64,000 nucleotides of DNA from an uncultured Bacteroidales bacterium (lineage in GTDB: Bacteria; Bacteroidota; Bacteroidia; Bacteroidales; JAGOPY01), in assembly GCA_963823285.1 (NCBI GenBank), contig CAWGKX010000006.1, forward strand, positions 219,915 to 283,914, in the 5' to 3' direction. The notes under the pieces were generated by a model, which made no database searches, had not been told where the DNA came from, and was given only the letters and a program-made list of their open reading frames with translations. The position numbers and the translations under genes were made by a program. Below, piece after piece: positions 26,625 through 63,627 of this stretch (the first letter of the stretch is position 1; each line of letters opens with the position of its first letter).

Positions 26625-26648
26625 TCGAATATCGAATATCGAGTATCG
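26625..26648. repeat. Heptamer tandem repeat (cgaatat x2, cgagtat x1)
   Basis: The sequence reads ttcgaatatcgaatatcgagtatcg, in the spacer between higB and the sulfatase gene. Confidence 0.7.
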
Positions 26649-26757
26649 CTCTTTCGCCGCTTCCCTCCGGGCTGAGGTCTTATATGAATAATATCCGGAG
26701 CAACCGGAAATCAGGAACTATCTGTAAAGACCGCCAAACCTGGACGGGTTGGACCTT

Positions 26758-29181
26758 TTAATCCCTCAGCCTGTTCTGCGCTTCCTTCTCCAGGTCAAGG
26801 TATTTTGCTTTTTCGACGCTGACATTGACGAAGAAAATAGTCCCGCCTTTAAACGTCCCGGGAGCTTTATAAAGCTGGCTGACCGCATCTCCACTGTCGT
26901 ATCCGACGCATAAACCGTCGCCAACGAGCGAAAAACCTCCTGCCTGCGTCCGCATCGGGCCTTTTGCAACTTCTTTGTCGTTTATGTATAGCTTCCCCTG
27001 GCCGATTGATTCGTAATATTCACCTGCTTTTTCCCTTATAAACTCCATCCCGACCGTATATTTTCCGGGCTTGAGCTCGCCTGACACCAATTGCTGTTCC
27101 GGCTTGATACCGAGGAAATTGTAGATATAATAAAGTTTTTTGTCTTTAATGAACAGGGAGTGGCCCCCGAAGCGGGAGCCGGTGGCGAAAATGACGCCGG
27201 AGCAGTCCGGATCGGTGATCTCGATATTCGCGATGATCTTGTATGAACACCCTTGTGTGATGACCGCGACCGCTTCCGGGACCGGCGATGCATAGGGATA
27301 ATAGGTATAAACTTCCCGGAGGCCTTCCTCGGTAGGCCGTTCAATATATGCAAGTTGCAACATGGACCTGTCATCCAGCGGCATGGCGTAGTTTTTCTCA
27401 GCCTCTTCGAACCATGCATTTTTCAATGCCCCGAGCTTTTCGGGATTCTCTTTTGCCAGGTCTATAGACTCGGCGCGGTCAATATCCACATGATAGAGTT
27501 GCCACTGATCCCTGTCGAAGTTATCTTTGTCCGACAAAGGTGCATGAACGGCAACGGCTTTCCAGCCATCTTCCCAGATGGCACGGGTGCCAAGCATGGC
27601 GTAATACTGGCGATGTTTTTGGGTCGGATCATCGGGCCTGGCATCAAAGGTGTACTTCATGGAAACCCCCGAGAGCGGGTATTGTTCTGCACCGCCATAA
27701 ACCTTTGGCATTTCCAGTCCGCATATTTCCAGCAAGGTCGGGACAATATCGACGGCATGATGATACTGGTTCCGTACTTCTCCGCGTGCCTTGATGCCTT
27801 TGGGCCAGTATATGACCAGCGGATCGGCCGTGCCGCCGGAATAATTTGAATAACGCTTGAACATCTGGAAAGGAGCGGAAAATCCGGCTGCCCATCCGGT
27901 CGGGATATGTTCGTAAGTATCCGGTCCGCCAAGCTTGTCGATGTACTTTATGTTCTCGGCCAGATCATCGGGGTAGCCGTTAAAGAATTTATTTTCGTTA
28001 ACGGAACCATTCGGGGTTCCTTCTCCTGATGCACCATTATCAGCGGCATAAAGAACGATAGTATTCTCGAGCTGGCCGCTTTTTTCCAGGTAATCGACAA
28101 TACGGCCGATCTGAACATCGGTATACTCTGAGAACCCGGCATAGACCTCACACAGGCGGGAGAACAGTTTCTTCTCATCTGCGTTGAGCGAATTCCACGG
28201 ACGAACGTAATCCGCCGGATTGGCCACGCTGTCGGGCAAAGGATTGAGCGGAGTGAGTTGCGTGCCTGCCGGAAGGATGCCCTTTGCGATCATGCGCGGA
28301 AGAACCCATTCACGGTAAGCTTCATAGCCTTCATCGAACTTGCCTTTATATTTATCAATGTAATCCTGCGGGCATTGGTGGGGGGCGTGGTTGGCTCCCG
28401 GACAGTAAAACATGAACCACGGCTTTGAGGGATTTGCTGATTTCTGGCTGGAAAGCATTTTGATAGCCTGGTCGGCAAGATCTTTTGAAAGATGGTAACC
28501 TTCTTCCGGGCTGTATGGTTGCTCAATGTAATGATTGTCTTCAACCAGGTCGGGGTACCACTGGTTGGTTTCCCCGCCTATAAAGCCATAAAAACGGTCA
28601 AAGCCCTTTTGCAGAGGCCATTCACTGCGGCTTGATCCTGAGGCCAGGTCCGAGCTGGGCACATTATGGTTCTTGCCCAGCCAGAAGGTGCTCCAGCCAT
28701 TATCCTGAAGGACCTGCCCGATAGTGGCACATTCTTCGGGAATCCTGGCATTGAAACCGGGGAAGCCATTCGACCCTTCTGCAATATTTCCATAACCGTT
28801 AAGGTTGTGGTTACGTCCGGTCAGGAGACAGGAACGGGTGGGTGAACTCAGGGCAGTAGTATGCCATTGCGTATATATCAGGCCATTGGCAGCCAGCTTA
28901 TCCAATGTGGGCATATTGATCGCCCCGCCATACGGTGACCATGCGGCCAGTCCGGTGTCATCATAAAGAATGAACAGGATATTTGGCGATCCCTCCGGGG
29001 CTTTCTTAAGCGTGTACGGACCCCAGTCCGGGACAGATTCACGGACATCCAGTTTGATAACGCCCTTGAATTCTTTCGCGGTCGTTGCTGGTTTTGTTTC
29101 CTTCTGCTGCGATTGGGCGTGTCCGAAGGCGAAAACAATCAGCGCGGGCACTGATGCTCCTATAATTGTCTTGTGATTCAT
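26758..29181 (-). CDS. Secreted long-form arylsulfatase (S1 family), Ser-type formylglycine motif
   Basis: Signal peptide present. Motifs: LFILYDDTG and TALSSPTRSCLLTGRNH, which is SxPxR instead of CxPxR. It is 807 aa. Confidence 0.88.
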   Translation of the reverse strand: MNHKTIIGASVPALIVFAFGHAQSQQKETKPATTAKEFKGVIKLDVRESVPDWGPYTLKKAPEGSPNILFILYDDTGLAAWSPYGGAINMPTLDKLAANGLIYTQWHTTALSSPTRSCLLTGRNHNLNGYGNIAEGSNGFPGFNARIPEECATIGQVLQDNGWSTFWLGKNHNVPSSDLASGSSRSEWPLQKGFDRFYGFIGGETNQWYPDLVEDNHYIEQPYSPEEGYHLSKDLADQAIKMLSSQKSANPSKPWFMFYCPGANHAPHQCPQDYIDKYKGKFDEGYEAYREWVLPRMIAKGILPAGTQLTPLNPLPDSVANPADYVRPWNSLNADEKKLFSRLCEVYAGFSEYTDVQIGRIVDYLEKSGQLENTIVLYAADNGASGEGTPNGSVNENKFFNGYPDDLAENIKYIDKLGGPDTYEHIPTGWAAGFSAPFQMFKRYSNYSGGTADPLVIYWPKGIKARGEVRNQYHHAVDIVPTLLEICGLEMPKVYGGAEQYPLSGVSMKYTFDARPDDPTQKHRQYYAMLGTRAIWEDGWKAVAVHAPLSDKDNFDRDQWQLYHVDIDRAESIDLAKENPEKLGALKNAWFEEAEKNYAMPLDDRSMLQLAYIERPTEEGLREVYTYYPYASPVPEAVAVITQGCSYKIIANIEITDPDCSGVIFATGSRFGGHSLFIKDKKLYYIYNFLGIKPEQQLVSGELKPGKYTVGMEFIREKAGEYYESIGQGKLYINDKEVAKGPMRTQAGGFSLVGDGLCVGYDSGDAVSQLYKAPGTFKGGTIFFVNVSVEKAKYLDLEKEAQNRLRD

Positions 29182-29482
29182 ACCTGATTAATTTATGGGA
29201 ATTGATTTAACAGAGGACTAATTAGTTGATCCTTATTAATTCACTTTTTTGATACCTCCAGTGAGAGGGTCAAGTCTGACTGGACAGTTTTTCATTCAAA
29301 TTTAATTGTATTATTTTAAAACGAGTGGATATGGGAGAGATTTATTACTTCCGTTTTTGAAAATCGAGTCTCAAAAATAAACCTGTGGAAACCTTAGTTA
29401 ACTTTGCCGGAAGGAGTGTACCTGAATAGGGCGGTCATCGGTGGCCGGCCCGTCGTGCAAAAAGTCGTGCACATGAAAACGA

Positions 29483-30226
29483 ATGGAAACGATCACCCGT
29501 AAGTCATTAATTTACAAAAGCGGCATCGGGGTTTACTGCATCAACCATGCGCTTGGTTGCCGCCATGGCTGCCTTTATCCGTGCTATGCCTACATGATGG
29601 CCAAATCTTACGGCCGGTCGGCGTCGTATGAGGACTGGTGCCGGCCCAGGCTGGTGGCCAACGCCGTGGAATTGCTCAGGAAGGAGCTGGCACGGATGAG
29701 GGTGAAGCCCGGTTCCATCCACTTATGCCTGAGCACGGATCCGTTCATGACGGGCTTTCCCGAAATGACCGAAATGAGCCTGGAGCTTATGGCCATCATA
29801 AACTCCTACGGGATCAGGTGCTCGGTGCTTACGAAAGGGAAGCTGCCGGCTGAACTTGCCGACAAAAACCGTTTCCTGGCGGATAATCTGTACGGGATCA
29901 GCCTGGTCTCTCTGGATGAGAAATTCCGCAAGCAGTGGGAACCAGGGGCCACACCTTATGCCGAAAGAATCGCTGCACTGAAATACCTTCATGACAAGGG
30001 GCTCATGACGCGGGCCCATATCGAACCGTATCCCACTCCCAATCTTATAGAACAGGATCTTGAAAACATCCTCGAAGCCGTCGGATTTGTCGATAATCTT
30101 TATTTCAGCGGCTGGAACTATAACAACAAGATCGGGCGGTTCCGGGACGCACCGCAGTTTTACCGGGAGCAGTCCGCCCTGGCACAGCGGTTCTGCACAA
30201 AACACGGGATTGAATTCAATTACTGA
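29483..30226 (+). CDS. SplB/COG1533-like radical-SAM-type protein with atypical Cys spacing
   Basis: The cluster is INHALGCRHGCLYPCYAYM, which is C-x3-C-x3-C rather than C-x3-C-x2-C. The rest resembles small TIM-barrel rSAM proteins (LCLSTDPF, SVLTKG, AERIAALKYLHDKG). Confidence 0.5.
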   Translation: METITRKSLIYKSGIGVYCINHALGCRHGCLYPCYAYMMAKSYGRSASYEDWCRPRLVANAVELLRKELARMRVKPGSIHLCLSTDPFMTGFPEMTEMSLELMAIINSYGIRCSVLTKGKLPAELADKNRFLADNLYGISLVSLDEKFRKQWEPGATPYAERIAALKYLHDKGLMTRAHIEPYPTPNLIEQDLENILEAVGFVDNLYFSGWNYNNKIGRFRDAPQFYREQSALAQRFCTKHGIEFNY

Positions 30227-30234
30227 CATGGGAT

Positions 30235-30348
30235 TATTTTCTCGCAGATTCTCGCAAATTTCAACGCTGATGTCCGCAGATATCTAAATATCAATGGATT
30301 ATCATCCGCGCAATCGGCGTAAAAATCTGCGAAAATCTGCGAGAAATA
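30235..30348. repeat. Imperfect about 32-bp inverted repeat (arms 30235-30267 and 30317-30348) between convergent genes, built from CGCAGA/CGCAAA-type motifs
   Basis: The left arm is tattttctcgcagattctcgcaaatttcaacgc. The reverse complement of the right arm is tatttctcgcagattttcgcagatttttacgc. The core ttctcgcagatt / aatctgcgagaa is perfect. Confidence 0.75.
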
Positions 30349-63304: not shown

Positions 63305-63312
63305 ACCTGCGG

Positions 63313-63347
63313 AGGTTTTAGGTTTAAGATTTAAGTTTTAAGTAGTT
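63313..63347. repeat. Degenerate heptamer array (aggtttt/aggttta/agattta/agtttta/agtagtt) 9 nt upstream of the yebC ATG. It is A-rich on the coding strand.
   Basis: Read directly. On the minus strand it reads aactact taaaact taaatct taaacct aaaacct ccgcaggt ATG. Confidence 0.8.
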
Positions 63348-63403
63348 GACTATTAGATTTTTGGGTTAGAATCTAACAGGACGGTAAAGGTAAGAAAAAA
63401 TTT

Positions 63404-63431
63404 CAATTCACAATTTACTGTTTACAGTTTA
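63404..63431. repeat. Degenerate heptamer array (caattca/caattta/ctgttta/cagttta)
   Basis: Read directly. Confidence 0.7.
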
Positions 63432-63515
63432 CGATCTGGAATTAAATAGTGAGGTTTCTCACGGATTTTCACAGAATACGCCACGGATTGCACAGAAGTA
63501 CCAAATTTGAACTTT

Positions 63516-63627
63516 GCCCTCCGCCCTCCGCCTTACGCTCTACGCCCTACGCCCTACGCCCTACGCTCTACGCCCTATGCCCTACGCCCAACGCCCTACG
63601 CCCTGCGCCCTACGCCCTACGCCTCCT
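63516..63627. repeat. Heptamer array (gccctac and variants, 16 units) abutting the stop codon of the upstream OMP gene
   Basis: The units run from 63516 to 63627 and the last unit overlaps stop codon 63627-63629. Confidence 0.95.

Follow-up and report, generated by a model that had tools for sequence, protein, structure and literature searches.

Intergenic heptanucleotide repeat arrays with locus-specific units in an uncultured Bacteroidales bacterium and its relatives

Description

Short tandem repeat arrays, most of them with a 7-nt period and each locus with its own unit, lie in the intergenic spacers of a stretch of DNA from an uncultured Bacteroidales bacterium (GenBank assembly GCA_963823285.1, contig CAWGKX010000006.1, positions 219,915 to 283,914; 64,000 nucleotides, hereafter the window). 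Genes flanking the arrays include adk, yebC, dnaX and those for an S41 protease, an M16 peptidase and a MacB-like permease, and a type IX secretion system (T9SS) plug protein is also encoded. Here, we describe the enrichment of these arrays, their positions relative to start and stop codons, their turnover across related metagenome loci, and their probable origin by replication slippage.

Methods

Arrays were detected with Tandem Repeats Finder (TRF) over the whole window, and genes were mapped by greedy selection of long open reading frames (ORFs), giving 88% coding sequence (56.7 kb coding, 7,408 nt spacer). Dinucleotide-preserving shuffles of the window's spacer DNA served as the enrichment control, and 80 DnaX loci from other Bacteroidota (1.37 Mb, 149 kb spacer) as the unrelated control. 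The clade set comprised the window and eleven metagenome loci (17.9 kb spacer, 140 kb coding). Relative loci, designated by L-numbers, were reached through the S41, DUF4271, YebC and DnaX proteins of the window; the metagenome scan with DUF4271 yielded 8 loci, every one informative. L081 and L102 belong to one Joint Genome Institute metagenome contig whose gene order matches that of the window between about 30 and 61 kb, with 93% identity in the S41 protease and 87% in DnaX. Among species-representative genomes, the closest DnaX proteins are those of the Bacteroidales metagenome-assembled genome L017 (69%), Sunxiuqinia (67%) and Prolixibacteraceae (64%), and no arrays were found at the dnaX 3' end in these closest loci (64-69% identity) from the genome scan. 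Together with the T9SS plug protein and the promoter motif described below, these relatives place the window in a Bacteroidales/Marinilabiliales-like lineage.

Sigma-70 promoter and terminator scans of the window returned shuffle-level counts (39 vs 38.2 and 29 vs 22.5, respectively). As expected for Bacteroidota, the sigma-70 scan was uninformative, and the motif TAnnTTTG, the Bacteroidota -7 promoter element (PMC6847099), was therefore used instead. Boxes of this motif number 17 in 7.4 kb of spacer and 26 in 56.6 kb of genes, a five-fold higher density in spacers, and all promoter positions given below are motif predictions. Rfam and tRNA scans of the window returned no matches, and a search of public sequencing runs, RNA runs included, with two stretches of the window listed none.

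Results

TRF reported ten period-7, one period-8 and three period-10 arrays in the window, of which nine period-7, one period-8 and one period-10 array fall in spacers on the gene map (Table 1). The nine spacer arrays of period 7, each of at least 2.9 copies, total 470 nt, against 0.01 arrays and a mean of 1.7 nt in the shuffles, which agrees with the view of the initial annotation that random microsatellites would not give this pattern. Coding DNA (56.7 kb) contributes only four arrays, all of them weak. Across the clade set, period 7 accounts for 34 of the 45 spacer arrays (five others have period 8, four period 14 or 21, and two another period) and three period-7 arrays lie in coding DNA, for densities of about 1.9/kb in spacers and 0.02/kb in coding sequence. 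The spacers of the 80 unrelated loci contain 32 arrays of period 7, 19 of period 8 and no more than 5 of any other period; with coding DNA included, these loci hold 52, 30 and 15 arrays of periods 7, 8 and 6, respectively. The period-7 preference is phylum-wide, and array density in the clade is about nine times that of the 80 other Bacteroidota loci. In the loci sampled, the comparison of spacer and coding periods that the initial annotation had proposed genome-wide gives an excess of period 7 in spacers at all three levels, and the dominance of this period that it described extends past the window. Among 78 heptamer units from the window and L001-L101, AGTC occurs 12 times (3.5 expected) and CAGTC 6 times (0.7 expected), an enrichment that is marginal after multiple testing. 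The AGTC core is also present in rotated forms of the reported units of the cyanobacterial repeats STRR1 and STRR3.

Table 1. Tandem arrays and predicted -7 promoter boxes of the window, with the genes that flank them
Feature	Position	Strand	Setting	Basis
TCGAATA x3.4	26625..26648	.	middle of 331-nt spacer between HigB-like start (26106..26426, -) and sulfatase stop (26758..29181, -)	TRF
Inverted 10-bp arrays and third decamer array	30238-30271 vs 30313-30346; 30364-30398	.	spacer 30227-30409 between convergent genes 29483..30226 (+) and 30410..30982 (-)	TRF and repeat search
Left hairpin arm: AGTCGTC x7.4 (35354-35405), then AGTAGGC x2.9	35354..35422	+	begins on TAG stop of M16 peptidase gene (33094..35358, +)	TRF
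Right hairpin arm, inverted copy of left arm: GACTGAC x4.6	35461..35492	+	stops 6 nt from dnaX stop codon (35499..37214, -)	TRF
AATTGTC x3.1	41841..41862	+	inside DUF7033 gene	
CGGTCTC x3.7-4.9 (x3.7 at 45256-45281)	45255..45288	.	convergent spacer, 12 nt past MacB-like stop (44002..45243, +)	TRF
CTTCACC x2.9	45292..45311	.	overlaps stop codon of T9SS plug gene (45308..46654, -)	TRF
8-mer GTCTTACA, sense strand TGTAAGAC, x10.4	49356..49438	-	between S41 peptidase stop (49447) and ChaN-like start (49313)	TRF
adk -7 box TATATTTG	53354..53361	+	adk promoter	predicted from Bacteroidota consensus (PMC6847099)
AATAACC x6.6, 100% matches	53378..53423	+	up to adk ATG (53423; gene 53423..53998)	TRF
-7 box TACTTTTG	56736-56743	-	of 894-aa acetate-CoA ligase/acetyltransferase gene	
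TCAGCAG x3.4	56786..56809	-	upstream of the preceding -7 box, downstream of hairpin after SatP-like gene	
AAAACTT/AAACCT-type heptamers x4.3	63315..63343	-	yebC leader, about 10 nt upstream of ATG (63304)	
TAAACTG-type heptamers x3.3	63410..63432	-	middle of yebC-upstream spacer	
GCCCTAC, sense GTAGGGC, x15.4	63516..63623	-	3 nt after stop of upstream gene (63627..63941, -)	

All nine arrays listed in the initial annotation were recovered by TRF where it had placed them; they occupy seven spacers rather than at least nine, since three lie in the yebC-upstream spacer alone, and the list lacked the spacer with the inverted 10-bp arrays. Its description of arrays flush with start or stop codons holds to within 0-12 nt at 35354, 45255, 45311, 49438, 53423 and 63623, and fails at 26625, 56786, 63315 and 63410. 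Spacers are strongly preferred, as it had also said; its stronger wording, that arrays never enter coding sequence, is broken by the three-copy AATTGTC stretch in the DUF7033 gene, which is 21 nt long, in frame, in the conserved N-terminal coding region and unchanged in length relative to the orthologue, and is probably a chance occurrence. Every kind of spacer is occupied (5' untranslated region (UTR), terminator-to-promoter, intercistronic and convergent), and several arrays have just 3-4 copies, which match imperfectly (81-94%). A repeat search of the 64 kb found no dispersed family and no shared flanks, the arrays themselves being the only multi-copy families, in line with the earlier statement that no single family of REP (repetitive extragenic palindromic) or MITE (miniature inverted-repeat transposable) elements is involved.

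Next to start codons, only A-rich, G-poor, AUG-free and unstructured arrays are found (sense-strand averages of 0.41 A and 0.07 G before starts). The AATAACC array is placed in the adk 5' UTR because it is situated between the predicted -7 box, which is kept as TATATTTGC in 8 of 10 relatives, and the ATG. It contains no G and no AUG, GUG or UUG, carries one TAA per unit and has A at positions -3 and -6, and the predicted folding energy of the leader is 0 kcal/mol. The yebC leader ends with AAAACTT-type heptamers that share these properties. In relatives with an intact adk promoter, at least the last 25 nt before the AUG are predicted to be unpaired. Ribosome profiling in Flavobacterium johnsoniae has shown that initiation is favoured by upstream adenines, little structure and the avoidance of extra AUGs (PMC6847099), and the features of the pre-start arrays fit these needs of initiation without a Shine-Dalgarno sequence in Bacteroidota.

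Inverted pairs of arrays give the most stable predicted structures. The spacer between the convergent M16 and dnaX genes, with AGTCGTC/GACGACT arms, folds (35353-35500) at -67.5 kcal/mol (z -9.5) on the plus strand, lacking a clear U tract, and at -78.5 kcal/mol (z -11.9) on the dnaX strand, where UUUUU directly follows the stem; on the dnaX strand the predicted fold therefore combines the stable 3' stem-loop and U tract of an intrinsic terminator. The arms of the decamer pair are 85% complementary, and the region 30238-30346 folds at -65.6 kcal/mol (z -5.6); its architecture is like that of the heptamer hairpin, with period 10 instead. In relatives, the dnaX/M16 spacer takes several forms: a perfect hairpin in L103 with both arms now AGTTGAC/GTCAACT (z -10), an ordinary 13-bp hairpin with a 1.5-unit remnant in L104, an ordinary hairpin only in L106, and an inserted small gene with two new arrays in L105. 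Because the dnaX 3' hairpin is kept with or without arrays and the two arms changed jointly in L103, we read the inverted pairs as terminators. Upstream of adk in L082, L090, L092 and L093, a second inverted arm creates a 5'-proximal hairpin (-25 to -30 kcal/mol, z -3.3 to -6.4), and in each species the unit of this arm is that of its own array.

Arrays that follow stop codons, such as GTAGGGC x15 (gene upstream of yebC), TGTAAGAC x10 (S41 protease) and CGGTCTC (MacB-like gene), have more G than C on the sense strand and many stop triplets (sense counts of 11 and 10, antisense counts of 0 and 1). After stops, G exceeds C in 12 of the 14 arrays of the unrelated loci and in about 12 of 16 in the clade. 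The sole canonical G-quadruplex motif (G3N1-7 x4) of the 64 kb is located in (GTAGGGC)n at 63573-63617 on the minus strand, the sense strand for both flanking genes, directly past the stop codon; by motif, one of about eleven arrays is quadruplex-capable.

Orthologous spacers differ in unit and copy number. Upstream of adk, AATAACC is present x6.6 in the window and x21, with three further short arrays, in L081; variants TGACTAA, TGACCAA or AGACTAA occur in L090-L093, a degenerate array in L082, L089 and L095, and two remnant units only in L099-L101. A pre-ATG array of AAAACTC type precedes yebC in the window, L097, L098 and L099, and the array after the stop of the yebC-upstream gene is GTAGGGC in the window, GAGTTTT in L097 and L098 (exactly the inverse of their pre-ATG array) and GGTTCCA in L099. 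At the S41 stop, GACTGTAA x10 in the window stands against AGATTGGG x5.6 in L081, with two 7-mers in L090 and no spacer in L082, and the MacB 3' spacer carries related GGTGACC/TTCACCG arrays in L081/L102 and L106. From species-level up to family-level distances, arrays are thus retained at given sites while their unit and copy number change. That homologous arrays occur in independent metagenome assemblies, and that three to five separate assemblies agree exactly on arrays of the relatives, shows that the arrays are not assembly artefacts, an outcome that the initial annotation had named as able to overturn it. The length polymorphism between strains for which it had suggested looking was not seen: between the consensus assemblies of L099 and L100, 141 of 14,371 positions differ, with no indels and none of the differences in six arrays. 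Other contigs of the same species were identical throughout and hence uninformative. An apparent length polymorphism of the adk spacer between L099 and L101 (271 nt vs 127 nt) was rejected, being caused by differing gene-start calls and not by the DNA.

Several further observations were made in the window and its relatives. In L082 (1083-1596), a gene for a 138-aa 23S_rRNA_IVP (four-helix-bundle) protein is flanked by inverted (CAGAAGA)x4 and (TCTTCTG)x6 and sits between acs and a major facilitator superfamily gene, which are separated by 5 nt in L081; this gene may be a cassette bracketed by array arms. Tandem repeats of 21 nt (seven codons, x4.7-6) are found in coding sequence at L097 1516-1631 and L099 7481-7578, within a 347-356-aa gene that follows an extracytoplasmic function sigma factor gene, upstream of yebC and beyond the window end. 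Two overlapping ORFs, 32505..33149 and 33094..35358, make up the M16 peptidase gene of the window, with a frame change near 33124-33131; its L102 orthologue is one 950-aa protein, and the split gene is either a pseudogene or the product of an assembly indel error. In L106 (14947-20252), which stems from a 1.03-Mb contig, the M16 gene is adjoined by genes for an N6/N4 DNA methyltransferase and a phage-type integrase, an island that the window lacks. The ChaN-like haem-binding gene (48786..49313 and 48443..48853) is the second frameshifted gene in the 64 kb, with a frame change near 48801-48844 and an intact 289-aa orthologue in L081. The HigB-like RelE-family toxin gene (26106..26426) overlaps the downstream gene for a helix-turn-helix (HTH) and M78/IrrE-like peptidase protein (24980..26116), and the two are likely a toxin-antitoxin pair. 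Finally, about 1.1 kb at 2740-3878 is devoid of ORFs of at least 100 codons and contains TAnnTTTG boxes at 2894 (-) and 3140 (+), with no Rfam match.

Discussion

We consider it probable, with room for doubt, that the arrays are slippage-born heptanucleotide simple sequence repeats (SSRs) that selection on reading frame excludes from genes and local constraints filter, some of them acting as terminator hairpins or unstructured leaders. They would originate in place and be renewed by replication strand slippage favouring units of about 7-8 nt, and variant units would be re-expanded repeatedly, changing the unit and copy number at a site over species-level time; such re-expansion would amount to concerted evolution. 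Neither 7 nor 8 is divisible by 3, so that expansion within a gene would shift the reading frame, and frame selection would keep genes free of arrays. Which orientation survives would be set by selection that disfavours structure and upstream AUGs and that perhaps favours stop codons or an excess of G over C after genes. The adk and yebC arrays would form part of the mRNA leader, and inverted same-unit pairs between convergent genes would form long hairpins that are most likely transcription terminators. Some arrays have probably been put to use and, judging from two strains of a relative and from the class of the neighbouring genes, the arrays are not phase-variation switches.

A number of points weigh against this account. 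Slippage and its length preference are inferred, and functional selection is putative; the selection for spacer properties that the initial annotation had suggested finds its match in pre-start arrays predicted to fold to 0 kcal/mol and in inverted pairs at -67 to -78 kcal/mol. In the dnaX/M16 spacer of L102 the left arm is kept and the right arm is now a perfect ACTGCCA x4.6, unpaired (z -2.4), and co-variation of arms could come about by template-switch ('quasipalindrome') correction without selection. The adk array is nearly lost in L099-L101. The post-stop G>C bias may be inflated by ORF calling where the stop codon belongs to the array, and GACTTCT x8 in L105 is a counter-example to it; the sets of pre-start and post-stop arrays are small and partly orthologous.

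Alternatively, the arrays would be neutral slippage junk, with hairpins, leaders and biases the residue of purifying selection and no function at all, a reading that we regard as unlikely overall but worth serious consideration. Each locus has its own unit and all kinds of spacer hold arrays, as neutrality would predict, and arrays are lost or degenerate in L089, L095, L099 and L104, the L102 arms are not complementary, and array-free versions of these spacers may span 2-55 nt (L082 S41 spacer, L106). Neutrality fits less well with persistence at the same sites (adk, yebC and MacB spacers) down to 65-74% identity of flanking or nearby marker proteins, with the maintenance of the dnaX 3' hairpin with or without arrays and the change of unit on both arms in L103, or with the consistent pre-start orientation at five independent loci. 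At the opposite end, and a little harder to credit, the arrays could be selectable, self-renewing cis-modules of a lineage without Shine-Dalgarno sequences. Stop-rich arrays lacking G and AUG would then serve as unstructured leaders for translation (adk, yebC), retained in place down to marker-protein identities of about 65% for adk and 87% for yebC, and inverted arrays as 'slippery' terminator hairpins whose arms are co-homogenised; as part of this same doubtful proposal, the 7-nt period would derive from a polymerase property or from the length of RNA covered by an OB-fold binder (bS1 or a cold-shock protein). If true, the arrays would be a fast mutational route for tuning leader length and terminator strength.

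It is improbable that the arrays are in essence binding platforms, in which the 7-nt period is the footprint of an OB-fold binder (cold-shock protein, S1) or of a heptad-spaced RNA-binding regulator and the arrays are cooperative sites controlling translation or mRNA stability, as in MacGregor's proposal for TAACTGA. Arrays do adjoin start codons in the 5' UTR across the clade, CspB is reported to bind heptamer repeats with one protein per heptamer (PMC4679880), bS1 binding at the A-rich positions -12 to -15 has been proposed for Bacteroidetes (PMC6847099), and AGTC and CAGTC are over-represented among units. However, that enrichment is the marginal one given above, numerous arrays follow stop codons or are not within a predicted transcript, and no candidate protein was identified. 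A single sequence-specific binder is unfit because units differ at each locus and between relatives at one locus. Contingency loci, in which copy-number change switches or tunes neighbouring genes as do the tetranucleotide and homopolymer repeats of Haemophilus and Neisseria, are a very improbable match. Like contingency SSRs, the arrays are tandem repeats located in promoters and 5' UTRs where slippage could change copy number, copy number upstream of adk differs three-fold between the window and L081, and perfect arrays do occur, among them AATAACC x6.6 in the window and AGAAGTC x8 in L105. Contingency SSRs, however, have units of 1-5 nt, lie in genes for surface or restriction functions and differ from one sister cell to another, whereas these have units of 7-8 nt, adjoin housekeeping genes and are stable at 1% divergence, the six arrays shared by the two strains of a relative being unchanged; most are imperfect, and identical arrays recur across the independent assemblies. 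Mobile or templated elements (REP/MITE or CRISPR-like arrays) and assembly artefacts are the most remote of the explanations considered. The arrays are intergenic, repetitive and in some cases inverted pairs, and the 23S_rRNA_IVP gene of L082, absent from L081, has inverted heptamer flanks; yet the 64 kb lacks a dispersed family or shared flanks, no unique spacers separate the repeats as in CRISPR, Rfam gave no matches, and the same arrays stand in independent assemblies.

Slippage-born SSRs, the reading that we favour, have known counterparts, and the heptamer excess in bacterial spacers is an already described class. According to the summaries in PMC4679880 and PMC4692102, long SSRs have units of 5-11 nt, heptanucleotides outnumber every other class in most genomes, and polymerase slippage that prefers a certain unit length was proposed as the cause in 2007 (Mrázek, Guo and Shah 2007), with further long-SSR work by Mrázek and Huang (2014). 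The present arrays share with these their head-to-tail arrangement, occurrence above chance, heptanucleotide mode, intergenic position and the exclusion from genes of units that are not multiples of 3; in the loci sampled here, each property tested was found (tandem units of 5-11 nt, excess over composition, and a period-7 mode in spacers). The rich genomes of that survey, as summarised, are those of Burkholderia, Xanthomonas, actinobacteria and cyanobacteria, whereas about 1.9 arrays per kb of spacer are found here in uncultured Bacteroidota. REP/MITE identity was considered and rejected, as one dispersed sequence with terminal inverted repeats was not found in the 64 kb, and identity with the TAACTGA, STRR1-3 and GGGAATC units was rejected on unit sequence.

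Mazel and colleagues reportedly described heptamer short tandemly repeated repetitive (STRR) sequences in cyanobacteria in 1990. Cyanobacterial STRRs are 7-bp intergenic repeats that form hairpins and are conserved by site (hupS-hupL), with suggested roles in transcript stability or translational coupling (PMC2670836). Tandem 7-bp intergenic units, hairpin formation and conservation at given sites are shared with the window. STRRs differ in reusing few units at many loci, where here each locus has its own, and in their host, a (heterocystous) cyanobacterium, where the T9SS plug, TAnnTTTG promoters and DnaX relatives mark the present host as Bacteroidota. None of the reported STRR1-3 units occurs twice in tandem within the window.

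Closer in host are the TAACTGA arrays found just before start codons in marine Beggiatoaceae, cyanobacteria and five Bacteroidetes, with other heptamer arrays in matching spacers of Gramella and Aequorivita (MacGregor 2015, PMC4679880). Pre-start position, stop-carrying orientation, housekeeping genes, Bacteroidetes hosts and other heptamers in relatives are common to both systems: the adk array reaches the ATG, the yebC array stops about 10 nt short of its own, and on the sense strand each unit of both contains a TAA. TAACTGA is, however, one dominant unit genome-wide and is present in the 64 kb as 3 single copies with no tandem copy, and here post-stop arrays and inverted pairs occur as well. 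Rehm et al. (2015, PMC4692102) describe intergenic G-rich heptamers, GGGAATC in Xanthomonas and GGGGAYT in Nostoc, situated near the preceding ORF's 3' end; their sites are conserved between species while length and sequence vary widely, inverted pairs occur, and the G-rich pattern is mostly on the non-coding strand upstream of an ORF and reversed downstream (PMC4692102). Placement, variation, inverted pairs and strand preference are shared. At the level of sequence motif, (GTAGGGC)n is the one array that fits the G3N4 quadruplex pattern; a single G-rich unit family per genome is unlike the arrays of the window.

Relative to these systems, what is new here is the lineage, the dense pattern of one unit per locus, the turnover series with arm co-variation and replacement by ordinary hairpins, and the fit of pre-start arrays to Shine-Dalgarno-independent initiation. 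For annotation, such arrays matter in that they yield spurious ORFs and break metagenome contigs. Orthologous spacers of the relatives show arrays born, re-expanded, inverted, degraded and swapped for ordinary hairpins and, as each locus has its own unit, the effects of unit sequence and period are separable. This lineage, a dense and clean case, therefore offers material for testing whether heptamer arrays are mutational debris or have been recruited as terminators and as leaders without Shine-Dalgarno sequences.

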